Source: Myxococcota bacterium (GTDB lineage Bacteria > Myxococcota > JACRCW01). Taken from it: 35,431 nucleotides of DNA. The notes under the pieces were generated by a model. That model saw only the letters and a list, made by a program, of their open reading frames with translations. It did not search any database and was not told the origin of the DNA. Made by a program: the position numbers and the translations under genes. The stretch is from assembly GCA_040752415.1 (NCBI GenBank), contig JBFMGU010000104.1:1-35431 (forward strand), in the 5' to 3' direction. Positions 1,533 to 17,725 of this stretch are shown here, piece after piece (position 1 is the first letter of the stretch; each line of letters begins with the position of its first letter).

Positions 1533-2669
1533 TCAGTACACTTCGATCTCGTTGAGGTGCAGCCAGTTCTTGCCCTGGTGGCTGAGCCGCACGTACCGCG
1601 CCGAATGCGGCTCGAAGCGCGGCTTCCACACCTGGAAGGTCGCCGTGACCTTGCCCAGCGTCTCGAACGTCTTGCCGTCCTCGCTGACCTGCAGGGCCAG
1701 GGGCACCGCGCGCTCCGAGCAGCAGTCGGTGCGGTTGTAGACGTGCACCTCGTGGATGGTGAACACCTCTCCCAGGTCCACCGTGACCCAGTTGAGGTCG
1801 GCGTTGGCGGTGCAGAAGCCCATGATGCTGCGGTCGCCGTCCACCACCTTCCTGGGGTCGGGGAAGCCGGGGTCCGGGTTGAGCTTGCTGGTGGTCACCG
1901 GACGGTTCAGCGCCAGGTTGGTGCCCGGCGCCGGTCCGCGCGTGAGCAGCGCCAGGGAAGGAGACGCGAGCAACGCCGCCGTCAGCAGGAAGCGCCAGGC
2001 CCGACGGAGGCGCACCAGGCGCGGTCGCAGCGAGGCGGCCTCCAGCGGGTCCAGGAGCACGCCCACCAGGCCGTGCAGCGCCAGCGCCTGCTCCGCCGCC
2101 TGACGCGAGCCCAACGCCGCGTCGTTGCCCTGCTCCACGACGTCAAACGCCCCCCGCGCCAGCCGCAGCGCCGCCGCGCCCTGCTCCCGCATGCCCCGCT
2201 GCACCTGCGGCATCCGCTCCAACAACGAGAACACCGTGGGCACCGCCCAGATGGCGGGCAGTGGTTGCGCGGCGTGCTGCAGGCGTGCCCGCAGGGCCCA
2301 CAGCACGGCGTCGCGCAGCAGCGCCAACTCCTGCATGCGCCGCGTCGACGTCGTCGCCGGCCCCTGCGCGCCCAGCTGCGTGGCGGCGTTCCAGGCGTCC
2401 TTGGCGGCGCGGTATTCCTGCCACCCGGGTGCGTCGGGGCCAAAGGCCGGGCGACGGGGCGGCGTGAGCTCGTCGTGGAAGAGGTAGAGGCGGCGCAGGA
2501 AGCGGACCAGCGCACCGTCACCCGCGGGCGGAGGCGGCACGGGGCGCACCGGCGGCTTGCCGCGCGGCGGAGGCGCACCGGTGACCGACACCGCGGCTCC
2601 CGGCTCAACCTCCGACCGCCCATCCATCTCCACCACCTGCGCGTGCTGCGTCGTCATCCCGTCACTCAA
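1533..2669 (-). CDS. Membrane-anchored F5/8 type C / F-type lectin-like domain protein
   Basis: Helical N-region, one TM segment after RRAWR, C-terminal NLALNRPVTTS...WVTVDLG...VYNRTDCCSER...ARYVRL...LHLNEIEVY; start uncertain (TTG 2669 or ATG 2657). Confidence 0.85.
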   Translation of the reverse strand: MSDGMTTQHAQVVEMDGRSEVEPGAAVSVTGAPPPRGKPPVRPVPPPPAGDGALVRFLRRLYLFHDELTPPRRPAFGPDAPGWQEYRAAKDAWNAATQLGAQGPATTSTRRMQELALLRDAVLWALRARLQHAAQPLPAIWAVPTVFSLLERMPQVQRGMREQGAAALRLARGAFDVVEQGNDAALGSRQAAEQALALHGLVGVLLDPLEAASLRPRLVRLRRAWRFLLTAALLASPSLALLTRGPAPGTNLALNRPVTTSKLNPDPGFPDPRKVVDGDRSIMGFCTANADLNWVTVDLGEVFTIHEVHVYNRTDCCSERAVPLALQVSEDGKTFETLGKVTATFQVWKPRFEPHSARYVRLSHQGKNWLHLNEIEVY

Positions 2670-3583
2670 TACACTTCAACTTCGTTGAGATGGAGGTGAT
2701 TTCTTCCCAGCAGGCGGAGTCGGACGTGGCGGGCCCGCACGGGCTCGAAGCGGTGCTTCCACACGTCAAAGACGTCCTGCCGCTTGGCCACCTCCCGCCA
2801 GCTCCGGCCGTCCTCGCTCACTTCCACCGCCAACGGGATGGCGCGCTCGGAGCAGCAGTCGGACCGATTGTAGACGTGGACCTCGCGCACCGACTGCACC
2901 GCACCCAGGTCGACCTGGACCCACGGCCGGTCCTCGTTGTTGGTGCAGAAGCCCATGACGTCGAGAACACCGTCCACCACCCCCGCGCGACCCGGGTGCG
3001 GCGGGAACTCGCTGCTGGTGGTCACTGGCCGGCCCCGCGCCAGGTTGGGCCCCCGACCCACGCGCGGCGCCTGCGAGATGGCCACCGTCACCACGACGGA
3101 GATCGCCGCCAGCCAGCGCAGTCTCCGTCGGAGCCTCAGGCCGCGCGGGCGCAACAACGTCTGCTGCAAGGGCGCCAGCATGGAGGTTGCGAAAGCGTGC
3201 AGCAGGGCGAGCTGCGCCGCGCGTTCCTCGTCGGTGGGGGCGGGGTGCTGCAGGGCGGCACGGACCGCGCGCAGGTCGCCCGGGGCGTCCGGGAAATGCT
3301 GCTCCAGCTCCGCCAGCAGCTGCTCCATCCCCACACCCGACGACGTCACCCGGCCATGCCACGCCAGTCGCGCGCGCGCCGCGGTTCGGGTGCCGGCGTG
3401 CACCAGCAGCAGCGCTTCCGCCACGCCAGAGGCGGGATGGAGGGCGCTTCGCGGGTGGAGTCCCAGGAGGGCCGCGGCGGAGAGCGTGCCCTGCGCCTCA
3501 CGCATCAGGTCCTCCCACGACCACGCCATCTCCGCCGGTGCGGGTTGTGCTGCGGGAGCAGAAGGCTGGATGGACACGTCCAT
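2666..3583 (-). CDS. Membrane-anchored F5/8 type C / F-type lectin-like domain protein (paralog of neighbour)
   Basis: TM segment then NLARGRPVTTSS...WVQVDLG...VYNRSDCCSER...LHLNEVEVY; abuts/overlaps the downstream paralog. Confidence 0.85.
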   Translation of the reverse strand: MDVSIQPSAPAAQPAPAEMAWSWEDLMREAQGTLSAAALLGLHPRSALHPASGVAEALLLVHAGTRTAARARLAWHGRVTSSGVGMEQLLAELEQHFPDAPGDLRAVRAALQHPAPTDEERAAQLALLHAFATSMLAPLQQTLLRPRGLRLRRRLRWLAAISVVVTVAISQAPRVGRGPNLARGRPVTTSSEFPPHPGRAGVVDGVLDVMGFCTNNEDRPWVQVDLGAVQSVREVHVYNRSDCCSERAIPLAVEVSEDGRSWREVAKRQDVFDVWKHRFEPVRARHVRLRLLGRNHLHLNEVEVY

Positions 3584-3595
3584 GGTGGTCCCCCT

Positions 3596-5170
3596 TCACA
3601 CCTGCGTGCTGGTCACATCCTGCGCGTTGGCGGGAAGCGGCTCCGGCGAGCCATCCTGTGCGGGCGGCGCCACCACGGGCGCTTCCGACGCCACCACCGG
3701 CTCCGCCGACGTCAGCGGCAGCACCACGCGCGGAATCTCCGGCATCACCAACGCCTGACGCGCCGGGTGCAGCCGCCACCACAGCCACACCGCGCCCGCG
3801 CCCCACAGGCCCAGGTAGCAGAAGAACGCCGTGAGCCGCTCCCAGCCGAAGAAGAAGGTGAACGCGTTGCGCATGGGTCCTGGGCCGTTGCCCAGCAGCG
3901 TGGGGAAGACCACCTTGCGGAACGGGTCGGGGATGTTGTCGGCGGCCAGCGAGTTGCTGAGGCACGCCGCCAGCATCAGCACCGCGGAGAGCAGACCCAG
4001 CGCGCTGAAAACGCCCGGCGCCACCCGCACCGCCGGCACCAACAGCAGCACCGCGAAGGGAAGCGCGTTGGTGAGGTAGCGCGGGCCAATGCAATAGCCA
4101 CCTTCCGCCCACGGCGAGGCGCTGGTGATGGCCAGGTAGGTCACCACGCCCAGCGCCGCGGTGATGAGGTCGGAGCGCACCTGCCGTTCCTTGCGCAGAT
4201 TCTCCAGGCCCAGGAGCACCAACGCAAACACCGGCGTGGCGTAGAGGATCCCGCGGAAGGGCTGCACGGTGAGGTCCACCAGGCGCTGCAGGCTGGGGAG
4301 CTCCCACGCCGGCACCGCGGCCAGCACCGGCGCCAGCACCTTCTTGCTGTAGGGGTGGATGAAGATGCTGTCGAAGCAGGCCCAGTTGTAGAGCAGGAGC
4401 AGCGCCGCCGGGCCCGCGCCGGCCAGCGCCCAGATGCCCAGCACCCGCAGGCTCAGCCGCGTGCGCCACATCAGCCACAACGTCCACAGCAGCACCGCCA
4501 CGGCGATGAAGAAGTCCGCGCTCACCGCCACGCCCATGGCCACGCCCGCCAGGTACAGCCGGCTGGTGCGCGGGCGCGTGGGGTTGTCCTCCAGCTCCAG
4601 TGCGCTGAGGCACATGCCAATGGTGAAGAACGCCGCCGCGGTCTGGTGACCAAAGAACATCACCGAATACGGAAACGCCAGGCTGCCGAAGGCCCACGCG
4701 CCACACACCGCGAACGACCAGCCCGGCGTCAGCCCGTAACGTCGCTGCAGCAGGCGCCACAGCAGCGCAATGGCAAACAGCGTGGGAATGATGGAGGCCA
4801 CCGCGTTGGAGATGTACTCCGCGGTGTCGCGGCTCATGCCGGAATCCGGGTTCCAGCCCAGCGCGCGCGTGATGCGGTACTGCAGCCAGTAGAACGGAAT
4901 GGCCATGAACGCCGGGCCGGGCGCTTTGTTGGAGTAGTGATGCCCGTTGTAGACCGCCAGGTCACCGGTCACGTTGCGCTTGGCAATCTCGTCGACGGTG
5001 AGCGTGCCGTGCTCCACCACGGAGAACACCACTGACATGCGCGACCACATGTTCCACGCCGAGAGCCCCGCGGTGATGGTCAGGTAGGTGAACGCCACCA
5101 GCGTCAGGAAGCCCGCCAATTCCAGGCGGTGCCGGCGCGCCGGCGCGGAGGGAATCACCTGCGGTTGCAT
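3596..5170 (-). CDS. Polytopic membrane protein, putative GT-C fold glycosyltransferase
   Basis: More than 10 hydrophobic segments; first external loop with GDLAVYNGHHYSNKAPG; late W-x-x-G...GPRYL motif; located in a sugar-nucleotide cluster. Confidence 0.65.
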   Translation of the reverse strand: MQPQVIPSAPARRHRLELAGFLTLVAFTYLTITAGLSAWNMWSRMSVVFSVVEHGTLTVDEIAKRNVTGDLAVYNGHHYSNKAPGPAFMAIPFYWLQYRITRALGWNPDSGMSRDTAEYISNAVASIIPTLFAIALLWRLLQRRYGLTPGWSFAVCGAWAFGSLAFPYSVMFFGHQTAAAFFTIGMCLSALELEDNPTRPRTSRLYLAGVAMGVAVSADFFIAVAVLLWTLWLMWRTRLSLRVLGIWALAGAGPAALLLLYNWACFDSIFIHPYSKKVLAPVLAAVPAWELPSLQRLVDLTVQPFRGILYATPVFALVLLGLENLRKERQVRSDLITAALGVVTYLAITSASPWAEGGYCIGPRYLTNALPFAVLLLVPAVRVAPGVFSALGLLSAVLMLAACLSNSLAADNIPDPFRKVVFPTLLGNGPGPMRNAFTFFFGWERLTAFFCYLGLWGAGAVWLWWRLHPARQALVMPEIPRVVLPLTSAEPVVASEAPVVAPPAQDGSPEPLPANAQDVTSTQV

Positions 5171-5207
5171 GGCGTGACTCGTGGGTGGCTCTTCCGTCGG
5201 GATGGCG

Positions 5208-5816
5208 TCAACGCGGGTGGTTCCGCGCCTCCTCCGACCAGGTCATGGCGAGGAACTGCGTGATGAGGTGCATGGTGGCCTGGTGCATGTCCTCGGCAAT
5301 GCCGTAGTTCTCGATGGGGATGTGCAGCACGTGGTCGGCCAGCTCCTTGAGCGCGCCACCCTTGAAGCCCACGAACGCCACCGTGGTCAGCCCGCGCGCC
5401 TTGGCCTTCTTGCACGCATTCACCACGTTGGGGCTGTTGCCGCTGGAGCTGATGAGCAGCACCACGTCGCCGGGGCGCGCGTAGTAGTCCACCTGCTTCT
5501 CGAACACGCTGTCAAAGCCGATGTCATTGCCCAGCGCGGTGACCATGGAGCCGTTGGCCGAGAGGCTGCGGCTCATCAGCACCGGGTGGCCGGCCACGCA
5601 GGTGCCCTTGGTGGCGTCGCACTCCAGGTGGTTGGCAATGGCCGCGCTGCCACCGTTCCCCGCCACCAGCACCTGGTTGCCGCGCGCCCGTGCGTCGGCG
5701 AGCACCTGGGTGATCTTCGCCATGGACTCCACGTCCCAGGAACGGACCATGGCGATGAAACGCTCCTGGTAGTTCTTGGCGAATTCCAGGAAGGCCTGCT
5801 GCATGCTGCTCATCAC
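5208..5816 (-). CDS. gmhA: Sedoheptulose-7-phosphate isomerase (SIS domain)
   Basis: GNGGSAA, TALGNDIGFDSVFEKQV, ISSSGNSPNV, GFKGG, YGIAEDMH motifs; start overlaps the GT2 stop. Confidence 0.85.
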   Translation of the reverse strand: MMSSMQQAFLEFAKNYQERFIAMVRSWDVESMAKITQVLADARARGNQVLVAGNGGSAAIANHLECDATKGTCVAGHPVLMSRSLSANGSMVTALGNDIGFDSVFEKQVDYYARPGDVVLLISSSGNSPNVVNACKKAKARGLTTVAFVGFKGGALKELADHVLHIPIENYGIAEDMHQATMHLITQFLAMTWSEEARNHPR

Positions 5817-6631
5817 TGCACCGGGTCGCGCTTGGGCACGGGGGTCTGCACGGGGCTCTGCGGCGACGTGGGAGCGTGGACGTCACGCACCGCCGCCGCG
5901 GTGTCCGCGCCGGCAAAGCGCTTGGGCTTGGGACGGAGCATGGCCTTGAACTGCCGCTCCACGCCCAGCTTCATCAGCGCCAGCCAGGTCAGGTTCTCCA
6001 CGCCCACGCGCCACGGCGCCAGCTTGGTCTCGCCCAGACGCTCGGCGTAGCGGATGTGGTACTCGCAGTAGCGCGGGCCCAGCGCCTCCATGGCGCGCAG
6101 CTTGATCTCCTCGGAGAAGTTCCAGCTGTCGCTGACCAGGTCCAGCTGCACCCACGCCTCCCGACGCATGGCCCACATGCCGCTGAGCACGTCCTCGATG
6201 TCGCGCATCCACAGCGCGCTGGCGGCCAGGCTGATGACCTTGTTCCCGAACTTGTTCCGGGGGCGCATGCTGCCGCTGTCCTCCAGCGGGAAGCGGGAGC
6301 AGGACACGAACAGCATGTCCTTCTGCAGCATGTACGTGAGGATGTCGGGGAGCGCGCCCAGCGGGTAGGTCCCGTCGCCATCCGCGCTGACCAGGATGTC
6401 CCCCTTGGCGGCGTTGAAGCCGGTCTTGAAGGCCCTGCCGTAGCCGCGACGCGTCTCGGTGATGACGCGGGCGCCGTTGGCGCGGGCAATGTCCGCGGTG
6501 CCATCCGACGACAACGCGTCCACCACCACCACCTCATCCACCAGCGAGGGCACGGTGCGCAGGGTGTAGGCAATCCCCTTGGCTTCGTTCCAGGTGGGGA
6601 TGATCACGGAGACGGAAAGGCCTTCAAACAT
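5813..6631 (-). CDS. GT2 glycosyltransferase, polyprenol/dolichol-phosphate sugar synthase-like
   Basis: VIIPTWNEA, VVVDALSSDGT, RRGYG, DGDGTYP, SRF, DVLSGM, YAERLGETKL. Confidence 0.88.
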   Translation of the reverse strand: MFEGLSVSVIIPTWNEAKGIAYTLRTVPSLVDEVVVVDALSSDGTADIARANGARVITETRRGYGRAFKTGFNAAKGDILVSADGDGTYPLGALPDILTYMLQKDMLFVSCSRFPLEDSGSMRPRNKFGNKVISLAASALWMRDIEDVLSGMWAMRREAWVQLDLVSDSWNFSEEIKLRAMEALGPRYCEYHIRYAERLGETKLAPWRVGVENLTWLALMKLGVERQFKAMLRPKPKRFAGADTAAAVRDVHAPTSPQSPVQTPVPKRDPVQ

Positions 6632-6697
6632 CGGGAGTTCCCCCGGGTCCTAGGGTTCACTGGAGGCGCGCAGCCATCCCACACGCCCACGAGCATT

Positions 6698-7351
6698 TCA
6701 AGCGTTGGCGCCGGAGACGGGCGGCACCGGATCGAGCGGCTCCAGGCGCGCCACGAACTGCAGCTCGGACGGCGCCAGGATGGACCAGGGCAGGTGGTGG
6801 ATCTTGAAGGGCCACTCCAGGGCGGCAATGCGTGCGCGCGCCTGGTCCACCATCTGCGTCCACTGGCTGGGCGTGAAGTACGTCCCGCGCACGTGCACCG
6901 AGGCCGACGCGTTGCCGGCCATGTCCAGCACCAGCAGCAGCTTCTCGCTCACCGGGCCAAAGGCGAAGTGGTCCTTCACCACCACGCAGCGACGCGCCAC
7001 GCGCACGCACTCGCCCAGCAGGCGGCCGGGGTTGCCGGCGTGGTGGAGCACGTCGGAGATGGTGACGGCGTCAAAGGTCTTGTCGGGGAAGGGCAGGTTC
7101 TCGCCGTCGAACGGGGTGATGGGGATGAACTGGTCGGGGCGGATCTGGATTTCCACGCCGCGCACGTCGGTGGCGCCCACCAGCTCTCCCAGCATGCGGG
7201 CGGTGGAGCCGTCACCGCAGCCCACGTCGAGAATGGATTGCGCCTGGCCGATCTGGCGGGCCAATCCCTGGGCCACGCGCTGGTTTCGCGGCTCATAGAC
7301 CTGGGAGCGGTGCACCGAGAAGATGGCCTGCTTGAGCAGATTCGCAACCAT
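6698..7351 (-). CDS. Class I SAM-dependent methyltransferase
   Basis: ILDVGCGDG, LPFPDKTFDAV, DVLHH; start moved to ATG 7351, preceded by GGAGG. Confidence 0.88.
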   Translation of the reverse strand: MVANLLKQAIFSVHRSQVYEPRNQRVAQGLARQIGQAQSILDVGCGDGSTARMLGELVGATDVRGVEIQIRPDQFIPITPFDGENLPFPDKTFDAVTISDVLHHAGNPGRLLGECVRVARRCVVVKDHFAFGPVSEKLLLVLDMAGNASASVHVRGTYFTPSQWTQMVDQARARIAALEWPFKIHHLPWSILAPSELQFVARLEPLDPVPPVSGANA

Positions 7352-7711
7352 GGGGACCTCCATGCGGGGCCGCCCGCCTAGCACACCACCCGCAGCGGGG
7401 CGACCCCTCCCGCATCCCAGGTGACGCCATCAAGCCTGGCAGAAACCGAACGGCCTGCTCTGCGTCCAGCTCGAGCACGGAGGGGTTCCCATCACATGGT
7501 GTCGGCCCGCACCCCGGAGCGCTCCGGGGTCGAGCTACCGCGGCCCCTCTGCCCCTGGCCGCGAAGGGACAGTCCATGTCGTGTGGCCTTCGTGTTGTCT
7601 CGAACCTTTCCGCACAAGGGCGAAGGGATGAAGCGCCCGGACGTATGGGCTGCACAGGTTTGCTCGCCCATGAGCCCCCCGATAGTGTCGCGACTCACCG
7701 GGAGGGCCGAA

Positions 7712-8584
7712 ATGAACACGACGTTTCACTTCGCCATGGTATCCGCGGCCCTGACGCTCCTGCCATCTTGCCCCGTCGGACATCCTCTCCCGATTGGTGA
7801 ATCCGAGGGAAGCAATGTCCGCCGGCGGGAATCGCCATCCTCCAGCACCAACACGAGCAGCTCCGGTGGAGCGTCGTCTTCGTCGTCGTCCGCGTCGGTT
7901 TCGACGTCTTACACCTCGACATCTTCGTCTTCGTCTTCGTCTTCAGGAGGCACCTCCTCTTCGGAGGTGGGCCCCCAAGGATGCGCAGACGGCGAGCGCG
8001 AGATGTTTCGAAGCATCAGTTTCTATCCGCGTATTGCGGGTTGTGGCGGCGGCTTCCAGGTCCCGGGGATCCACGACGAGGCAGCCCCCACCTGCGGCCG
8101 CGAGGCAGGCGATGATGGGACCCGCCCCGACGGGGAGGGATGCAGCGCGGGTGACCTCTGCGCCGAAGGGTGGCACGTGTGTCGCAGCGAGAACGAAGTC
8201 GCCCAGATCATCGGCAGCGCCTGCCGTGGCGCGACGGACGCCGAAGGCGCGGTCTTCTACGCGACCAGGCAAAGCGGCACCGGGTGTGGCAACTGCGCCA
8301 TGGGTACAGACTCGACCTGTAGTCGACCTGATGACTGTCGGCGCGGTTGTGCGGACACCGCCGTGACGACGAACGACGTCTTCGGCTGCGGCACCCTGGG
8401 TGCGCAACCCACGCCAACCCAGTGTGGGGTGCTCAACCGCTCCTGCGACGACCTCTGCTCTGGTCTCGTGTGGCCATGGCAGTGCAGCGGCCAGGCTGGC
8501 GAACCGACTCCCGAGGACCGCGAGTCCCTCATCATCGTGAAACCAGGGCCCGAGGCCGGCGGCGTGCTGTGTTGCCGGGATTGA
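7712..8584 (+). CDS. Cys-rich putative lipoprotein with Ser-rich linker
   Basis: GGAGG at 7701, ATG 7712; hydrophobic leader ending LLPSC; poly-Ser linker; Cys-rich domain GCADGERE...GGVLCCRD. Confidence 0.75.
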   Translation: MNTTFHFAMVSAALTLLPSCPVGHPLPIGESEGSNVRRRESPSSSTNTSSSGGASSSSSSASVSTSYTSTSSSSSSSSGGTSSSEVGPQGCADGEREMFRSISFYPRIAGCGGGFQVPGIHDEAAPTCGREAGDDGTRPDGEGCSAGDLCAEGWHVCRSENEVAQIIGSACRGATDAEGAVFYATRQSGTGCGNCAMGTDSTCSRPDDCRRGCADTAVTTNDVFGCGTLGAQPTPTQCGVLNRSCDDLCSGLVWPWQCSGQAGEPTPEDRESLIIVKPGPEAGGVLCCRD

Positions 8585-8608
8585 CGTGACGTTGACACGC
8601 AGGTGGTG

Positions 8609-9598
8609 TCACATGTCCTCGGACATATAGACCACCTTCGCGCCACCGCGATCCAGCCTCAGCGGCAACTCCTGCTGCGCATTGAGCGCCTCACGGATGG
8701 CCGGCTGAACCTCGGGCGCCGCCGCCACGAGGAGGAACCCGCCGCCGCCCGCCCCCAGCAGCTTCCCGCCCCACGCGCCCGCCTCCATGGCCTTGCGGTA
8801 CATCTCGTCGATGTGGGGGTTGCTGATGCCGCTGGAGATGCTGCGCTTGAGCTCCCACGCCTGGTGCAGCAGCTTCCCGAACGCCGCCACGTTGTCCGCC
8901 TCGAGGAGCCCCTTGGCCTCGTGGGCCATCTCCACCATGCGCTGGACGGTCTTGAACTTCTCGGCGTCCGTCATGAGCGCCTTCTTCTGCTCACTAAGCA
9001 CCTGCGAAGCGCTGCGCTGCTCGCCTGTGTAGAACATGAGCAGGCTCGCCTGCAGCGCGGCGCGCGTGGCCTGGGTGATGACCAGCGGCGCCACGTCGAC
9101 GGTGTCGTCGGGGAAGAAGCGGATGAAGTTCAGGCCGCCGTACGCGCTGGCATACTGGTCCTGCTTCCCAATGGGCGCGCCCAGGTCCTCGATCTCGATC
9201 TCCGACGCGGTCCGGGCCAGGTACTCCACGGTGGCGTGCTTGCCGAGGTACCCGCTCATCAGGTTGAGCAGCCCCACCGTGAACGCGCTGGAGGAACCCA
9301 ACCCGGTCCCCGCCGGCACATCCGCCGTGCTGGTGATCTCGACGCCACCGTTGATACCCATGCGCTCCAGCACTCGCTTGACGATGGGATGCCGGATCTC
9401 CTCGACGGACTTGGCCAGCTCGGAGTGGGAGTACTTGATGTGGATGGACTTCGTGTCGAAATAGGGATGCGCGGAGAGGTACATGTACTTGTCGATGGAC
9501 GTCGACAGCACGGCTCCCGGGCTCTTGCGGTAGAACGCGGCGAGGTCGCTTCCGCCTCCGAAGAAGCTGACGCGGAACGGAGTGCGGGTGATGATCAT
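8609..9598 (-). CDS. hddA: GHMP kinase, D-glycero-alpha-D-manno-heptose-7-phosphate kinase
   Basis: TPFRVSFFGGGSD, PAGTGLGSSS, GKQDQYASAYGG, GGKLLGAGGGGF. Confidence 0.9.
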   Translation of the reverse strand: MIITRTPFRVSFFGGGSDLAAFYRKSPGAVLSTSIDKYMYLSAHPYFDTKSIHIKYSHSELAKSVEEIRHPIVKRVLERMGINGGVEITSTADVPAGTGLGSSSAFTVGLLNLMSGYLGKHATVEYLARTASEIEIEDLGAPIGKQDQYASAYGGLNFIRFFPDDTVDVAPLVITQATRAALQASLLMFYTGEQRSASQVLSEQKKALMTDAEKFKTVQRMVEMAHEAKGLLEADNVAAFGKLLHQAWELKRSISSGISNPHIDEMYRKAMEAGAWGGKLLGAGGGGFLLVAAAPEVQPAIREALNAQQELPLRLDRGGAKVVYMSEDM

Positions 9599-11484
9599 GC
9601 AACCCCCTGGATCCTGAGCTGGCCATCCAAAGCCAGGTGAAGCGTGGCCAATCCCAAGGTGCTTGCCACGGTGTCATGCTCCTCGGCGCGACCATCCACC
9701 GCCGCGTCGATCTCCGACGGAGCGAGTCCCTTCCACACGTAGAACGCCCGCCGCCTCTCCCGCAGCGCCTCCGCATCCGCGCGCATCACCACCTTGAGCG
9801 CGCCCGGCACATCCAACGCGTGCGCCAAGAGGCCATCCACGACGAGGACGCCCTTGCCGCTCCACTGCACCACGGCGCTGGCGGCGCGCTCGCGCGTGAC
9901 GGGGTTGTATCCCGGCATCAGCACCGGCTCGCACGTCGCAAGTCGCGCCACGGCCTCACGCGTGTCCTCGAAACGGATGCGTTCCCTGAGCGTGCTGTCT
10001 ACCTTCCTCGTCGACGCGGGCTGGATGTAGCGGTCCAGGCTCACGTGCAGCACGGGGATGCCCAGCGTCTGCAGTCGGAGCCGAAGCGCGTTGGCCGCCA
10101 CGGTCTTCCCGCTGCGTGAGCCGCCACCAATGAGCACCACGCGCGCACTCCGTGCCTCCTCGAGGAACGGGTCCCAGCTCGGCGCGGTGTCCAGCATCAG
10201 GCCCACCGCCTGCGCCAGGTCCTGCAGCAGTGGAATCTCCGGCGCCAGGGGATGCTTCCCGTCCTTGCACGCCACGCCGGTCATCACGCCCACGGGCAGC
10301 ACTCCCGCCGCGCGCGCCGCCAGCATGTCGGTGGTGCGGTCACCGACGAAGATGCTTGCCCTGCGGTCGACGCCGAGGGCGGCTTCCGCCTGGAAGATGA
10401 GCCCCGGCTGCGGTTTGCGACAGTTGCACGGGACCTTCAGCTCCACGCGCTCCTGCGGGTAACCGCGGTCCGGGTGGTGCGGACAGGTGAAGATGTCGTC
10501 GAGCCACGCGCCACCTTCGCCGAGCTTACCCTCCATGTAGCGGTGCAGCTCGTGCAGTCCGTCCTCGGTGATGTCACCGCGCGCCACCACGGGCTGGTTG
10601 GTGCAGCAGACGGAGAGCACGCGCGCCTTGTTGAGCCGCGTGATGGCCTCGACCACGCCCGGCATGACGACGAGCTTGTCCTTCCGCGTGAGGAACGGCT
10701 CCTCCTGGATGAGCACGCCATCGCGGTCCATGAGCACGGCGGGCCGCGGCGTGGACCGACGCATGCTCGCTGGCACGCCCGAGCGCAGGTCTCCCTCCAC
10801 CTTCTGCAGGCGCGTCAGCGTGCCCATGTCCTTGAGGTATTCCGCGGACCGGTACGCCAGCAGCCGCTTTCCCGACGACACCAACGCGGGGAACACGTCA
10901 CGCGCGAAGTCCCGCGGCTTTCCGTCGGCGGGAATCTCCGCGAGCAGGCGCTTCTCCAGCACGTACAGCGCGGCATTGCACAGCGCGCCGGCCTCGGGAC
11001 CCGCGTGGTCCTCCTTGCGCACCATCCGCTCAATGACGCCGTGCCGGTTGGTGACGACGCGGTCGCTGTCCATGGGATGGTCATTGGGATGCACCAGCAG
11101 CGTGGCCAGTCCTTCCCCCGCGAGGTGCGCCTGCCAGAACAACCCGATGTCCACATCCGCGAGCACGTCCCCGTACACGACGAGGAAGCGGTCCTTGAGC
11201 AGGTGCTCGGCCGCCTTCACCGCGCCCGCGGTGCCCAGCGGGGAGGTCTCCACGGAGTAGCGGATGCGCACGCCATGGCGTTCCCCGTGGCCCATCACTT
11301 CTTCCACGTAGGCGGCGCGGTACGCGGTGAGCAGCACCACGTCGTCGACGCCCTGGGGCGCAAGCCAGCCCAGGATGTGATCCAGCAGCGGCACGCCGCA
11401 GATCTTGACCAGGGGCTTCGGCGGCGCTTCGGCGTCCTGGCTAAGCCGCGTGCCCTTCCCGCCGGCTAGGATGACCGCCTGCAT
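9595..11484 (-). CDS. Three-domain fusion: HddC-like nucleotidyltransferase + GmhB-like HAD-IIIA phosphatase + P-loop (uridine-kinase-like) domain
   Basis: ILAGGKGTRL...PKPL...LGTAG...YGD; DRDGV, TNQP, CPHHP...CNCRKP, VGDR; C-terminal GGGSRSGKT, SLDRY, VVDG. Confidence 0.88.
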   Translation of the reverse strand: MQAVILAGGKGTRLSQDAEAPPKPLVKICGVPLLDHILGWLAPQGVDDVVLLTAYRAAYVEEVMGHGERHGVRIRYSVETSPLGTAGAVKAAEHLLKDRFLVVYGDVLADVDIGLFWQAHLAGEGLATLLVHPNDHPMDSDRVVTNRHGVIERMVRKEDHAGPEAGALCNAALYVLEKRLLAEIPADGKPRDFARDVFPALVSSGKRLLAYRSAEYLKDMGTLTRLQKVEGDLRSGVPASMRRSTPRPAVLMDRDGVLIQEEPFLTRKDKLVVMPGVVEAITRLNKARVLSVCCTNQPVVARGDITEDGLHELHRYMEGKLGEGGAWLDDIFTCPHHPDRGYPQERVELKVPCNCRKPQPGLIFQAEAALGVDRRASIFVGDRTTDMLAARAAGVLPVGVMTGVACKDGKHPLAPEIPLLQDLAQAVGLMLDTAPSWDPFLEEARSARVVLIGGGSRSGKTVAANALRLRLQTLGIPVLHVSLDRYIQPASTRKVDSTLRERIRFEDTREAVARLATCEPVLMPGYNPVTRERAASAVVQWSGKGVLVVDGLLAHALDVPGALKVVMRADAEALRERRRAFYVWKGLAPSEIDAAVDGRAEEHDTVASTLGLATLHLALDGQLRIQGVA

Positions 11485-12416
11485 GCTTCCACCTCGGCGG
11501 TGACGGCGGCCTGCACGGCCTGGTTGCTGTTCATGCGCGGCTTCCAGCCCAAAGCGCGGATGCGGCTCGTATCATAGGCGAACTTAGGAACGTCACCCGG
11601 CCAACCGCGGTCCCCGCTCCCGTACTCGATGACGGCGTCCTGGAACCCGAGCGTGGCGCGCACCATCTCTGCAATCTCGCGCACCGTGGTCGCGCCCTCT
11701 CCGGCCACGTTGTAGACGGCCAGCGGATTGGCGGGATGGGACACGCCGGTGAAGATGGCGTCGAGCAGGTCGTCGACGTGGAGGTACGGCTTGAGCTGGG
11801 TGCCGTTCCCCAGGACGGAAAGCTTCTTCTTGTCGCGGTGCAGGCGCCGCACGAAGTCATAGACCGCCCCGTGCGTGAGGTTGGGACCCACCACGTTGGG
11901 GAAGCGGAACACCCACGCGCGCATGTTGAACAGGTGGCTATACGCGCTGAGGTACGCCTCGCTGGCGAGCTTGGAGGCGCCGTACAGCGAGATGGGCTGC
12001 AGCGGCCCGTGCTCCTCGCGCAGTTGTCCGTCGGCCTCACCGTAGATGGCGCTGGTGGAGGCGAAGACCACCTCCTTGGACTCCGCGCGACGCATCGCAT
12101 CCAGCACGTGGAAGGTGGTGAGGAAGGTCTTGTGCAGGTCGGTGCGCGTGTCCTTGGTGCCGGCCTGGATGTCGCTGTTGGCGGCCATGTGGAAGACGCG
12201 CTGGGGCTTGAGCGTGACCACCAGCTCGGCGAAGGCGGGCGTGAGAATGTCCATCTCCGTGACGGTGAGCCGCTTGTTGCCAGCGTGCTGCGCCAGGTTC
12301 ACCCGACGTCCCAGGGAGAAATCGTCGACGACGTGGACTTCGTCGCCCGCATCCAACAGCCGGCCCACCATCCGCGAGCCGATGAAACCCGCACCACCCG
12401 TCACGAGGATCTTCAC
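11466..12416 (-). CDS. NAD-dependent epimerase/dehydratase (extended SDR)
   Basis: TGGAGFIG, STSAIYGE, YGASK, RFPNVVGP, GWPGDVP. Confidence 0.92.
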   Translation of the reverse strand: MKILVTGGAGFIGSRMVGRLLDAGDEVHVVDDFSLGRRVNLAQHAGNKRLTVTEMDILTPAFAELVVTLKPQRVFHMAANSDIQAGTKDTRTDLHKTFLTTFHVLDAMRRAESKEVVFASTSAIYGEADGQLREEHGPLQPISLYGASKLASEAYLSAYSHLFNMRAWVFRFPNVVGPNLTHGAVYDFVRRLHRDKKKLSVLGNGTQLKPYLHVDDLLDAIFTGVSHPANPLAVYNVAGEGATTVREIAEMVRATLGFQDAVIEYGSGDRGWPGDVPKFAYDTSRIRALGWKPRMNSNQAVQAAVTAEVEACRRSS

Positions 12417-14331: not shown

Positions 14332-14460
14332 GGCTCCCCGACGGGATGTGGGACGGCGCCGCTCTTAGCACGCCACCGTGCTCCGCGGTGAGGCCGGTGG
14401 GTTTGTGCAGCGCGCCGGGGTGACCGTGCTAGCGTCGCCGGCCCGGGAGTGGACCCACCG

Positions 14461-15825
14461 ATGAAGACCCGCCTTGCATTCAAGATTGCCTTCCTGCAGG
14501 CCGTCACCGTGTCGCTGTCCCTGTTCCTGTTCACGGTGTCCGACTTCCTCTTCGACACCGGCGGGCTGCGGGTGGTCGCCTTCGTGGTGCCGCTGGTCAT
14601 CGTCAGTGGGCTCTTCACCTGGTCGTACGTCAGCATGCTCAGCAAGAACATGCAGAACCTGGCCTCCACCGCCAGCCACATCACCCAGGGCGACCTCTCC
14701 ACGCTGGTGCGCTTTGACCAGCCCAGCAGGTACCCCGATGAGGTGGACCAGGTGGCCGAGAGCATCAACACCATGCTCCAGAACCTGCGTGAGCTGGTGA
14801 GCCACCTGCAGAAGACCGCGCGCAACGTGGCCGAGAACGCCACCCGCCTCTCCAAGGCCGCCGAGAACGTCAACACCTCCGCGGAAGGCGTGTCCAAGTC
14901 CATTGCCGTCATCCGTCGTGGCGCCGAGCTGCAGAACGAGCTGGTCAACAAAGCCAACCGCCTCATCAACGAGCTGTCCGCCGGCATCGAGCGCACTGCC
15001 CAGGCCGCCCAGGACGCCGCGCGCGCCGCCGCGGAGACGCACACCGCCGCAAGAACCGGTACCGAGGTGGCCAACCTCGCTGTCGACAAGCTGCAGGAGG
15101 TGTTCCGCCGCGTGGAGCAGGCATCCAAGCGCGTGTTCGCCTTCGGCGAGAAGAGCCAGGCCATCGGCAAGATCGTCGAGGTGATCACCAAGATCAGCCA
15201 GCAGACCAACCTGCTTGCGCTCAACGCCACCATCGAGGCCGCGCGCGCCGGTGAGTACGGTCGCGGCTTTGCGGTGGTTGCCGACGAGGTGCGCAAGCTT
15301 GCGGAGTCCTCCGGCAAGAGCGCCGAGCAGATCACCGTGCTGGTCAGCGACATTGCCAAGGACAGTGAGAGCGCCGTGATCGGTATGCGCGACGGTACCC
15401 GCGAGCTGAACGCCTCCCGCGAGGACCTGGCGTCCATCATCCACAGCCTGGAGGGCATTGTGGAGTCCGCCCTGCGCGGCGCGGAGAAGGCGGAGCAGAT
15501 TGCCCGCACCAGCCAGGGTCAGCTGGCCGGCTCTTTGGAGATGGTGAAGGCCATCAACAACATCCAGGACGTGGCCAAGCAGAACATGCAGGCCACCGTG
15601 GAGGTCAGCCGCGTCACCGCCGACCAGTCCAAGAGCATGGAGGAGATGGCCTCCAGCGCGCTGGAGATGAGCAACCTCTCGCTCGAGCTGGAGCACGTGG
15701 TCAGCCGCTTCCGCCTGGGCTCCACGCCGCCCACCGCCTCCAGCAGCGGCGGCGCCCCCGCGGGCTCCCCCACCCCCGGCAACCGCTCCACCGTCCCGCC
15801 CTCCAACGAGCGCGTCCCCGCCTGA
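14461..15825 (+). CDS. difA: Methyl-accepting chemotaxis protein lacking a periplasmic sensor domain, DifA-like
   Basis: Two TMs with a very short loop, HAMP (ITQGDLS...DEVDQV), signalling core [46 protein letters not shown] and FRLG segments recalled from M. xanthus DifA (symbol tentative). Confidence 0.8.
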
Positions 15826-15985
15826 AGTTTCCGCGGGTCCGGATCCGTTCCCCGTCGTCAGCTCCCTCGCGTTTCCGCTGCGGCTGGGCTACTTCCCGGG
15901 CTTCGGGACGCAACTTTTGTCCCCTCCCTGCCGATGTAGGTGTCCTCCACACCCTTCTGGCACCAGATCCCTTCGGAGACAGTTC

Positions 15986-17725
15986 ATGCCCACCATTCGC
16001 GACCGGCAGCTCTCGAACGTCTACTCCGCCCTGGAGGCCCAGCGTCGTCTGGACCCCAACGTGAAGATCGACACCAGCAACATGGTGAAGCTGCTGGCCA
16101 CCGTGGCGGACAGCTGGAAGGGCAGCGCGTCCACCATGGAGGGCAAGCTGAACCGCGCGGGCATCACCCGTGAGGAGCAGGTGGAGCTGGTCAAGGCGGG
16201 GATGAGCGCCAACGAGAAGAAGGACCTGGAGGCCATCCTGGACGGCGGCAGCGTGCCCATGGCCGACGAGGTCAAGCGCTTCCTGGAGCAGGTGCTGGGT
16301 CGCCAGGAGGTGGGTCCCTCCGACGGCAGCCTGCGCATCACCGGCAACCAGGCAGGCGGCGTGCTTTCCGGCGTGGCCAAGGCGGGCTCGCAGATTGAGG
16401 TCATCAACCTCTCCACCACGCCGAACAAGCGCCTCCACACCGACGACACCTTCGCGCTGGCCACCGCGGGCGCCGACGGGAAGTTCTCCGGCACCATGGA
16501 CATGAAGGAGGGCGACATCATCCGCATGCGCGCCCGCGACGCCAGTGGCAACGTGGGCAACTGGGTCACGCTGCGTGCCACCGGCATGGGCGTGGATACG
16601 CGCAACGCGGAAGTGGCGCTGTTCCGCTTTGGTCTGACCGCCGACGCCGCCACTGGCAAGGTGGACGTGGTGAACATCAACGCCAGCCGCCAGATCAGCG
16701 AGCCCGGCGCCAAGATCCAGTTCGTCAACGAGCGCACCGGGGAGAAGACGGTGGTCACCCTCAACGAGGAGGGCACCTTCCCCGCGGGCCTCAAGGTCAA
16801 CGGCAAGGCCGGCGACAACTTCTCCATCCGCGCCTCCGACGGGCGCAACAACACGGACTTCAGCCAGGAAGTGGGCAAGGTGACCGTGCCGGGCGCGGGT
16901 GGTGGCACCGGCGGCGTGGACCTCCCCGACCCCAAGCTGCACAAGGATGAGCTGAACGCCGACGGCACGCCGCGCTTCCAGACCAAGCGCTTCACCGGTC
17001 CGCTGTTCAAGGACGGCGCCAAGCCGGAGGACGTCAAGCAGGGCCAGATTGGCGACTGCTACCTGCCCAGCGCGGTGGCGGCCCTGGCGCGCAGCCATCC
17101 CGAGGTCCTGCAGTCCATCATCAAGGACAACGGCAACGGCACGTACACGGTGACCTTCAAGGAGCAGGACTGGCGCAGCGGCGGCTTCAAGGACAAGCAG
17201 GTGACCGTCGACGGCGACCTGTACGCGCGCTCCTGGGGCGGCCCGCTCTACGGCTCCTCCGCCGGCGACACGAGCGAGCGCGGCATGGAGATGTGGTGGC
17301 CCATCTTCGAGAAGGCCTACGCGCAGTGGCAGGGCAGCTACGACACCATTGGCAACGGCGGCGTCTCCTCGGAGGTGTTCGAGGCGGTGCTGGGCCGTCA
17401 CTCCGACGACATGTACGGCCTGGGCTACCAGAGCGCGGACAAGATCTGGAACAAGATCAAGACCAGCATCGACAAGGGGATGCCGGTGAGCGCCGGCACG
17501 CATGGTGAGTCGGAGAGCTCGCGGTACACCAACACGGGCGTGTATGCGAACCACAGCTACAGCGTGCTGGGCTACGAGGAGAAGAACGGCGAGCGCTACG
17601 TCAAGCTGCGCAACCCGTGGGGTGAGAGCGAGCCGTTCCCCGGCGACGGAAGGAACGACGGCATCTTCAGCCTGAAGCTCGCGGACTTCCAGAAGCTCTA
17701 CCAGAGCATCTACACCGTGCGCTGA
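15986..17725 (+). CDS. Calpain-like cysteine protease (peptidase C2) with two Ig-like repeats
   Basis: QGQIGDCY (Cys), NHSYSV (His), LRNPWG (Asn), WWPIFEKAYA; start set at ATG 15986 after GGAG. Confidence 0.88.
   Translation: MPTIRDRQLSNVYSALEAQRRLDPNVKIDTSNMVKLLATVADSWKGSASTMEGKLNRAGITREEQVELVKAGMSANEKKDLEAILDGGSVPMADEVKRFLEQVLGRQEVGPSDGSLRITGNQAGGVLSGVAKAGSQIEVINLSTTPNKRLHTDDTFALATAGADGKFSGTMDMKEGDIIRMRARDASGNVGNWVTLRATGMGVDTRNAEVALFRFGLTADAATGKVDVVNINASRQISEPGAKIQFVNERTGEKTVVTLNEEGTFPAGLKVNGKAGDNFSIRASDGRNNTDFSQEVGKVTVPGAGGGTGGVDLPDPKLHKDELNADGTPRFQTKRFTGPLFKDGAKPEDVKQGQIGDCYLPSAVAALARSHPEVLQSIIKDNGNGTYTVTFKEQDWRSGGFKDKQVTVDGDLYARSWGGPLYGSSAGDTSERGMEMWWPIFEKAYAQWQGSYDTIGNGGVSSEVFEAVLGRHSDDMYGLGYQSADKIWNKIKTSIDKGMPVSAGTHGESESSRYTNTGVYANHSYSVLGYEEKNGERYVKLRNPWGESEPFPGDGRNDGIFSLKLADFQKLYQSIYTVR

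Follow-up and report, generated by a model that had tools for sequence, protein, structure and literature searches.

A Myxococcota gene cluster joining GDP-heptose enzymes to a DPMS-like GT2 and a GT-C membrane protein: a candidate lipid-carrier heptosylation system

To our knowledge, the heptoses of bacterial glycans are added by soluble Leloir glycosyltransferases (GTs) that use ADP- or GDP-heptose. A group of genes at positions 1533-12416 of a 35,431-nt stretch of DNA from a Myxococcota bacterium (contig JBFMGU010000104.1 of assembly GCA_040752415.1; the whole stretch is called "the window" here) suggests that heptose may also travel on a lipid carrier. The cluster encodes the enzyme classes of a GDP-heptose pathway together with a short-chain dehydrogenase/reductase (SDR), a methyltransferase, a family 2 glycosyltransferase (GT2) that resembles dolichyl-phosphate mannose synthase (DPMS), and a membrane protein with the GT-C fold (P0001). 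On balance we lean, by a little, toward the reading that GDP-heptose, probably 4-epimerised and methylated, donates its sugar to polyprenyl phosphate, from which an acceptor outside the cytoplasm receives it. A first-pass annotation of the DNA had offered this lipid-carrier interpretation; the computational tests it named have now been run, none of them refutes it, and it is supported. What the analysis itself shows is which genes are present and how they are ordered, that the membrane protein has a GT-C fold, that the GT2 is DPMS-like, and that the GT2 clade is linked to heptose and GT-C genes.

Heptose linkage of the GT2 clade

The GT2 gene (positions 5813-6631, minus strand) encodes a protein of 272 aa. 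This GT2 and the HddA-like kinase of the cluster were searched for in 401 sampled genomes of the phylum, and a metagenome scan gave 80 further GT2 loci. A GT2 match at E values up to 1e-20 is present in 35 of the 401 genomes, and only three genomes contain a close relative: G281 (71% identity), G021 (49%) and G348 (45%). In G281 the genes for the SDR, the fusion protein described below, HddA, the methyltransferase, the GT2 and GmhA form a set colinear with that of the window, at 57-73% identity. The GT2, SDR, HddC-GmhB and HddA genes of G021 lie together, with GmhA 3 kb off, and the heptose genes of G348 are on the same contig as the GT2 gene, 14 kb apart. HddA is found in 50/401 genomes, and lies within 15 kb of the GT2 gene in all four of the genomes that have a close GT2. 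Against this background the clustering is beyond chance; the relatives, it should be said, are not independent.

A FastTree phylogeny of 110 GT2 sequences, from which high-scoring segment pairs of fewer than 170 query residues and three loci duplicating L116-L118 had been dropped, places the window GT2 in a clade of 13 members with Shimodaira-Hasegawa-like support of 99. GmhA/HddA genes adjoin the GT2 gene in eight of the 13 (the window's genome, designated G000, as well as G281, G021, L119, L122, L123, L125 and L126). As for the remainder, G348 has its heptose genes at the distance just given, three members are on contigs shorter than 6 kb, and one, L124, has none. In all, nine of the ten members with usable context are linked to heptose genes. 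The count in the sister clade of 17 is zero, with at least 6 kb of context available for seven of its members, and the other 80 rows of the tree include two linked loci (L146 and L161). Heptose linkage marks this particular clade; DPMS-like GT2s as a whole do not share it. This is the main argument that the donor of the GT2 would be the heptose nucleotide.

Other uses of GDP-heptose

Six other GDP-heptose cassettes of the phylum were examined with 10 kb of flank. Leloir enzymes of the GT4 and/or GT2 (Glyco_transf_7C) type are present in five of them (G085, G097, G200, G296 and G168), the remaining one (G163) contains an ABC-2/Wzt exporter, and none of the six has a Pfam GT-C match. The contrast with the usual direct transfer of heptose, which the first-pass annotation had drawn, is real. 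Pfam scans of the other large open reading frames (ORFs) rich in codon-position G+C (GC3) in the window detected no Wzx, Wzy, ABC exporter or additional glycosyltransferase, in line with the first-pass annotation. The phylum seems to use GDP-heptose in two ways, of which the window represents the unusual one.

The enzymes named as relatives of the GT2 all take hexose or pentose donors. The GT2 and GT-C, perhaps with the methyltransferase, might accordingly form an ordinary polyprenyl-phosphate-hexose relay, with the heptose genes feeding Leloir heptosyltransferases elsewhere, for example those of the lipopolysaccharide (LPS) core. The window gmhA is the sole GmhA-like gene found in this 96.8%-complete assembly, which elsewhere encodes an HldE-type kinase domain (345.8 bits, above the NCBIfam cut-off) beside a GT9 gene, as well as four more GT9 matches (contigs C66, C90, C145, C179 and C219); the window gmhA may, on this explanation, serve LPS. 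However, the tie to heptose is specific to the one GT2 clade, and gmhA is translationally coupled to the GT2 gene and placed between it and the GT-C gene. Furthermore, the HddA/HddC branch yields the GDP-alpha form of the sugar, and GT9 enzymes use ADP-heptose. A Leloir GT accompanies the cassette neither in the window, nor in G281, nor among the scanned ORFs of G021, unlike in the six conventional cassettes. A hexose relay is thus judged unlikely. As to the single gmhA, either it serves LPS too or a second copy is unassembled.

Relationships of the GT2

The GT2 has a GT-A domain (PF00535, 80.7 bits; cut-off 23.3), and its DXD motif, D84-G-D86, is invariant in the four-member clade alignment. 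Its top NCBIfam match is the haloarchaeal dolichol phosphate (Dol-P) hexose transferase (4e-34; 117.5 bits versus 375; profile positions 3-200 of 213), followed by AglJ (4e-32; 111.7 bits versus a cut-off of 325) and, at a lower level, PpgS (5e-11) and ArnC (1e-4); all of these are below the equivalog cut-offs. A profile of the four closest GT2 relatives matches Pyrococcus furiosus DPMS (5mlz) at 4.2e-18 over residues 2-219, that is, the catalytic domain and the helices that follow it, and the clade profile matches ArnC at 5.8e-10 and GtrB at 8.8e-6. With Dol-P hexose transferase, AglJ and P. furiosus DPMS as nearest matches, the GT2 appears most like the polyprenol-phosphate type that had been noted at first pass.

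Glucosyl- and mannosyl-3-phosphoglycerate synthases (GpgS and MpgS) also match the GT2, at about 1e-12 to 1e-14 and in its N-terminal half only. This resemblance, together with the absence of a membrane helix, would suit a GT2 that moves heptose directly to a cytoplasmic acceptor other than polyprenyl phosphate, either a small phosphorylated molecule like those of GpgS and MpgS or a growing lipid-linked glycan; the GT-C would then use another donor or act as a polymerase or ligase. A methyltransferase beside a GpgS-like enzyme is, in addition, reminiscent of methylated polysaccharide pathways. Yet Dol-P hexose transferase, AglJ and DPMS give better matches, which reach across residues 2-219, whereas those to GpgS end near residue 94-120. 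Without a lipid-phosphate-sugar donor it would also be hard to explain why a GT-C-like partner occurs in seven of eight clusters (see below), and neither an initiating phosphoglycosyltransferase nor Wzx/Wzy nor an ABC exporter is found in the window. For these reasons a cytoplasmic, non-polyprenyl acceptor is thought quite unlikely.

The GT-C membrane protein P0001

P0001 (3596-5170, minus strand; 524 aa) was modelled with AlphaFold2 on its 44-member homologue alignment. The model (predicted local distance difference test, pLDDT, 90.7; predicted TM-score, pTM, 0.89) has the GT-C fold that the first-pass annotation had anticipated. The first 24 Protein Data Bank (PDB) matches returned by Foldseek are all GT-C enzymes. 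In a comparison with VIA-align the best match is ArnT (5f15; Z 23.5, root-mean-square deviation 4.0, 344 residues aligned, identity 11-12%), and ALG12 (Z 22.4), AglB (Z 20.1) and Pmt1-Pmt2 (Z 20.0) each align over about 330-360 residues at about 4 Å. Entries 1-49 are all GT-C or the GT-C-like PIG-U; the next entry has a Z of 4.5. The model finishes in a disordered tail, and a large periplasmic domain is absent. All 44 homologues share D70, K82, P84 and R364 without exception, and the model places D70 in the first outer loop, between helices 60-64 and 85-103. GT-C enzymes bear their catalytic acid in the first outer loop, and we infer from the model that D70 is probably catalytic.

By sequence, P0001 belongs to no curated GT-C family: a Pfam search up to an E value of 1 gives just DUF7103 at 0.05, with no PMT_2 or ArnT match, and a PDB sequence search gives chance matches only. 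The NCBIfam model for the Leptospira LA_3751/LA_3752 putative glycosyltransferase is matched at 45.3 bits versus a 200-bit cut-off. The family is small, with 58 proteins at E values up to 1e-5 among 5.8 billion clusters, and one homologue (P0029) has a GT87 match. GT-C enzymes take lipid-phosphate-linked donors, and P0001, given its modelled fold, is proposed to be a putative extracytoplasmic heptosyltransferase.

GT-C partners in heptose clusters and in the P0001 family

A GT-C-like membrane protein is encoded in seven of the eight heptose-linked clusters with context, the window's included, and in four of these (G000, G281, G348 and L122) the GT-C fold or the Pfam threshold is reached. The modelled G281 protein (pLDDT 89.9) matches Pmt4 (Z 18.4) and ArnT (Z 15.5), all 50 listed rows being GT-C or PIG-U, and one of its homologues has a GT87 Pfam match. 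Two PMT_2 genes of G348 (33.3 and 28.8 bits; cut-off 26.1) are divergent from the heptose genes. At L122 the SDR and GT2 genes flank a GT87 gene (42.8 bits), and there is also an unassigned ORF with 11 transmembrane (TM) segments. G021 has a PMT_2-like gene at 25.5 bits, slightly under the 26.1 cut-off, as well as a second ORF with 8 TM segments, and L126 has a pair of multi-TM ORFs that are homologues of the G021 protein (E about 1e-8). Finally, a 10-TM ORF at L123, cut by the contig end, is a distant relative of P0001 (hhalign probability 82.6%, E 9.6e-6, the region of the D-x-x-Y-x-G motif included).

A separate observation concerns G281, where (L116 14192-16591) the 470-aa GT-C membrane domain stands in frame before the SDR with no intervening stop, so that the two may form a GT-C-epimerase fusion of 799 aa; in the public annotation the locus has a 396-aa SDR only (P0070). 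Such a fusion, if real, would bring the epimerase to the membrane.

When one genome per species was scanned, relatives of P0001 turned up in 408 stretches, of which the best 79 loci were retained. The three closest orthologues, at 49-53% identity, are from metagenome-assembled genomes (MAGs) of Rokubacteria and Acidobacteriota. Directly downstream of the GT-C gene in two of these three, a GT2 is fused to a MetW-like methyltransferase (L002 11280-12863 and L003 11383-12897), and L047 (11578-14973) has the same kind of fusion. The GT2 half is 29% identical to the window GT2 over residues 7-214 (E 2e-11), and the methyltransferase half matches the window methyltransferase weakly (E 2e-6 to 4e-6). 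GT-C, DPMS-like GT2 and methyltransferase recur as a set even without heptose genes. The fusion, of the Rosetta-stone type, hints that GT2 and methyltransferase may share one substrate. Two of the three genomes have HddA-like genes elsewhere. That the orthologues closest to P0001 keep this set with no heptose genes near is also what an ordinary hexose relay, considered above, would lead one to expect.

The neighbours of the 79 loci were clustered with a simple gene caller over +/-5 kb, and no sugar-nucleotide pathway was found among them. In 35 of the 79 loci the P0001-family gene, from a distant member (L008-L078; mostly Kofleriaceae, and other Myxococcota MAGs), lies beside a large gene of the sulfatase/alkaline-phosphatase family, usually upstream and on the opposite strand, which hints that this sulfatase-linked branch has a different, conserved role. 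Weak nucleotidyltransferase matches at 13 of the 79 loci are GlgC-type genes beside a starch/glycogen synthase-family (Glyco_transf_5) gene.

The nucleotide-heptose pathway and the epimerase

The window is one whole contig of an assembly of 11.0 Mb in 520 contigs, with about 69% G+C. Since spurious ORFs are plentiful at this composition, genes were chosen by GC3 and then checked against Pfam and NCBIfam. Every gene that the first-pass annotation had named is there; all lie on the minus strand and have the high-GC3 codon usage expected of real genes, and the GmhA, HddA, GmhB and HddC classes are encoded together as it had reported, the four domain types all falling inside 5208-11484. The GmhA-like SIS protein, a putative sedoheptulose-7-phosphate isomerase (5208-5816, minus strand; SIS_2, 72.1 bits), matches TIGR00441 gmhA at 6.4e-32 (110.7 bits versus a 209-bit cut-off). 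The HddA-like GHMP sugar kinase, or heptose-7-phosphate 1-kinase (8609-9598, minus strand; GHMP_kinases_N and GHMP_kinases_C), has HddA (NF049969) as its top NCBIfam match at 4.3e-49 (167.8 bits versus 600).

HddC- and GmhB-like domains are joined in a 629-aa fusion protein (9595-11484, minus strand; Pfam NTP_transferase, Hydrolase_like and AAA_18), with an HddC-like guanylyltransferase in residues 1-240, a GmhB-like phosphatase in about 247-430 and a P-loop kinase-like domain in about 440-629. The first part matches a mannose-1-phosphate guanylyltransferase model at 8.9e-47, HddC at 3.6e-22 (79.1 bits versus 300), and, in a PDB search, the nucleotidyltransferase of the Yersinia 6-deoxy-manno-heptose pathway (5xhw) at 4.9e-19. 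The GmhB part matches NF006506 at 2.6e-39 (134.6 bits versus 178) and PDB entry 2gmw at 3.9e-26. The third domain (window positions 9595-10167) contains a Walker A motif, GGGSRSGKT, and is conserved: tblastn alignments to the corresponding fusion genes extend into it in ten or more further genomes from the phylum (L215-L224). Attempts to assign it gave AAA_18 at 28.4 bits and uridine kinase at an E value of 0.2; both are weak, and no assignment was made.

The heptose cluster of G348 (L243 11459-12169) includes a transaldolase/FSA-family gene, which lies beside HddC-GmhB and the two PMT_2 GT-C genes; the gene fits a dedicated supply of sedoheptulose 7-phosphate.

The GalE-type SDR (11466-12416, minus strand; Pfam Epimerase, 164.6 bits) has as its top PDB matches 3ehe (8.1e-69) and 8rdg (2.3e-66), then 3icp and 3aw9. 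Of these, 3ehe, 8rdg and 3aw9 are described in PMC12171764 as GDP-sugar 4-epimerases. By homology a GDP-sugar 4-epimerase is the likeliest identity of the SDR, which would probably act on GDP-heptose, in keeping with a GDP-linked heptose. A 4,6-dehydratase, as in a 6-deoxy-heptose route, was considered for the SDR and dropped, because its closest PDB relatives are 4-epimerases at far better E values (1e-54 to 1e-69, versus about 1e-23 for dehydratases).

Other products and the layout of the cluster

The class I S-adenosylmethionine methyltransferase (6698-7384, minus strand; MetW/Methyltransf_11 type, Pfam Methyltransf_11, 53.2 bits) adjoins the GT2 gene also in G281 (65% identity), and counterparts are present in L122, L123 and L125. 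It is a candidate sugar O-methyltransferase.

Two paralogous genes specify proteins that cross the membrane once and carry an F5/8 type C (discoidin) domain at the C terminus, one at 2666-3583 (minus strand; PF22633, 64.6 bits; PF00754, 58.5 bits) and the other at 1533-2669 (minus strand; PF22633, 60.9 bits). Each consists of an N-terminal domain, one hydrophobic stretch (at about residues 155-170 in the 2666-3583 protein) and the discoidin domain; the N-terminal domain would be cytoplasmic and is of no known family, with the F5/8 type C domain facing outward. The discoidin genes appear to be co-transcribed with the GT-C gene, and no relatives of them stand beside GT-C or GT2 homologues in the other loci examined. 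It may be speculated, by analogy, that these proteins help to hold the acceptor, as substitutes for the periplasmic or carbohydrate-binding domain that the GT-C is missing.

The genes are tightly packed. The SDR and fusion genes overlap by 19 nt, and the stop of the fusion gene overlaps the start of the HddA-like kinase gene by 4 nt. As the first-pass annotation had pointed out, the GT2 gene overlaps gmhA, its TGA stop sharing 4 nt with the GTG/ATG start. The gap from the gmhA stop to the GT-C start is 37 nt, that from the GT-C stop to the first discoidin gene is 12 nt, and the two discoidin genes overlap by 4 nt.

The run of minus-strand genes is interrupted by a Ser- and Cys-rich, lipoprotein-like ORF on the plus strand (about 7700-8584, within ORF 7421-8584), in a 1.2-kb stretch between the HddA and methyltransferase genes. 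After an internal Met come LLPSC, which resembles a lipobox, then a long linker rich in Ser and a C-terminal part rich in Cys; the ORF has no Pfam or NCBIfam match. Its GC3 is below that of its neighbours, it is not in the colinear G281 cluster, and it may be foreign to the system. This interruption, and the fact that the P0001 family and the discoidin proteins are not kept beside heptose genes in relatives, would be natural if the genes were chance neighbours and not one functional system. Chance is nevertheless a very improbable explanation for a common strand with overlapping or near-abutting gene ends, for the colinear cluster of G281, and for the same gene classes co-occurring on independent metagenome contigs.

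Besides the cluster, the window encodes (by Pfam) an enolase-superfamily enzyme, a methyl-accepting chemotaxis protein, a calpain-like protease, a phospholipase D-family protein, a desaturase, EutBC, a GMC oxidoreductase and ComEC. A secreted-type protein that joins a bacterial Ig (Big_6) domain to a calpain-family cysteine protease domain (106.9 bits) adjoins the methyl-accepting chemotaxis protein (15917-17725 and 14449-15825 respectively, both plus strand); these two are apparently unrelated to the glycosylation cluster. The two discoidin paralogues, the plus-strand lipoprotein-like ORF, the P-loop domain of the fusion and the sub-cut-off pathway scores are features beyond those in the first-pass annotation.

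Comparison with known systems

Known GDP-heptose pathways pass GDP-heptose to Leloir glycosyltransferases. The cluster has the same four enzyme classes as these pathways and differs from them in three respects: HddC-GmhB is fused to an extra P-loop domain, tailoring is limited to the SDR and the methyltransferase, and transferases are limited to the DPMS-like GT2 and the GT-C. As in the ArnC/ArnT system, a single locus combines a dedicated nucleotide-sugar pathway with a GT2 and a GT-C; P0001 matches no structure better than ArnT, and ArnC is a detectable relative of the GT2. Unlike ArnC/ArnT, the locus contains a heptose pathway in place of that for UDP-4-amino-4-deoxy-L-arabinose and no ArnE/F homologues, and P0001 is without a periplasmic domain of any size at its C terminus. 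Across its catalytic domain, with the DXD motif conserved, the GT2 comes closest in sequence to DPMS 5mlz, Haloferax AglJ, the haloarchaeal Dol-P hexose transferase and mycobacterial Ppm1/PpgS, although its scores fall far short of the equivalog cut-offs. The GT2 differs from DPMS-type synthases in belonging to its own heptose-linked clade, and its donor would be GDP-heptose, not GDP-mannose or a UDP-hexose.

Three-component systems offer a further parallel. In Citrobacter youngae, according to PMC11127046, a polyprenyl-phosphoribose synthase works with a MATE flippase and a GT-C of family GT136, and a carbohydrate-binding module (CBM) on the GT-C of this pentofuranose system takes part in substrate binding. 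The cluster would resemble GtrA/GtrB/GtrC, which glucosylates O-antigen, and the Citrobacter system in having a cytoplasmic synthase of a polyprenyl-monophosphate sugar, a GT-C that uses this sugar outside the membrane, and an auxiliary epimerase that diversifies it. The Citrobacter CBM parallels the discoidin proteins of the window, whose domains are on separate single-pass proteins and not fused to the GT-C. Unlike in three-component systems, the sugar would be derived from GDP-heptose, and the GT2 is without TM helices.

Weighing the lipid-carrier route

A number of observations count against a polyprenyl-phosphate route for heptose. L124 is a member of the GT2 clade whose 8.2-kb contig shows no heptose genes; the tree was built by FastTree alone, and related genomes are not independent; neighbour gene calls and TM counts in the relatives, made with simple scripts of our own, are crude. 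A Kyte-Doolittle scan finds no TM helix in the GT2, unlike GtrB, ArnC and P. furiosus DPMS, although Ppm1 and human DPM1 likewise have none and the haloarchaeal Dol-P hexose transferase model, at 213 positions, leaves no space for them. No flippase gene (GtrA, ArnE/F or MATE) is found in the cluster, to which the search was confined, the rest of the genome not being searched; the ORFs of at least 70 aa with at least two hydrophobic segments in 1533-12416 are the GT-C gene and a short plus-strand frame, 7801-8112, within the lipoprotein-like ORF region. Every heptose-pathway match is under its NCBIfam equivalog cut-off, and the proteins are, to judge from their scores, homologues of the right classes and not certified equivalogs. 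The window GmhA may also feed the ADP-heptose/LPS branch, the plus-strand ORF divides the cluster into two transcription units, and no feature of the sequences appears to fix the donor or the acceptor of the GT2. Among the GT-C partners, L125 shows no multi-TM ORF in 10 kb upstream, and its contig ends just past the GT2 gene; HddA was not found in G403, which holds one of the three orthologues nearest to P0001. GmhA/HddA genes lie within about 10 kb in none of the 79 P0001-family loci (the best 79 of the 408 stretches), and hhalign comparisons of the P0001 family with the membrane proteins of G281 and G021 detect no homology (probabilities 0.6%, 0.2% and 31.6%).

The two halves of the cluster had been expected to stay linked in relatives. 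Heptose genes with the GT2 (and the methyltransferase) do so, and some GT-C accompanies them in seven of the eight clusters, but this particular GT-C family does not. Consequently, the halves are linked by enzyme class and not by orthologue. A comparison of the G281 family profile with the L122 GT87 protein also fails (hhalign probability 1.5%), and in view of these failures the GT-C partners are treated as different families. It appears about as probable as not that polyprenyl-phosphate-heptose is an undescribed donor that is made by a dedicated GT2 clade and used by GT-Cs of at least four unrelated families (P0001-, PMT_2-, GT87- and G281-type), recruited independently, both in Myxococcota and among uncultured bacteria of soil and sediment, to one and the same heptose-GT2-methyltransferase cassette, to give an extracytoplasmic heptose that is 4-epimerised and/or O-methylated.

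The pathway envisaged would begin with the synthesis of GDP-heptose by the four pathway activities, after which the GalE-type SDR probably inverts C4. On the cytoplasmic side of the membrane, the DPMS-like GT2 would take the heptose off GDP and load it on undecaprenyl (polyprenyl) phosphate, and the methyltransferase would O-methylate it, either on the nucleotide or on the lipid. A flippase, none of which was found in the cluster, would turn the lipid-linked heptose outward, and the ArnT-like GT-C would add it to an envelope acceptor, which might be lipid A/core, another glycan or a protein, perhaps with the discoidin-domain proteins helping to hold that acceptor. What we infer is each of the substrates, whether epimerisation or methylation comes first, the existence of a flippase, and the acceptor.

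The literature searched, which did not extend to subscription journals, contains no mention of polyprenyl-, undecaprenyl-, decaprenyl- or dolichol-phosphate heptose. In a search for GDP-heptose with GT-C or polyprenol, none of the matches listed mentions GDP-heptose, and among the matches listed for heptose with three-component, GtrB or periplasmic glycosylation, no title or abstract presents a heptose system.

Significance

The system extends the known three-component glycosylation scheme and is no new principle. A lipid-carrier route, if true, would add a class of sugar to the repertoire of polyprenyl-phosphate donors; the GT2 clade would then be usable as a bioinformatic marker, and a GT-C family that has no Pfam model would gain a function. 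The source organism is known as an uncultured, MAG-type genome. The four pathway enzymes of the cluster itself suffice to prepare the nucleotide sugar, which makes the system directly testable.

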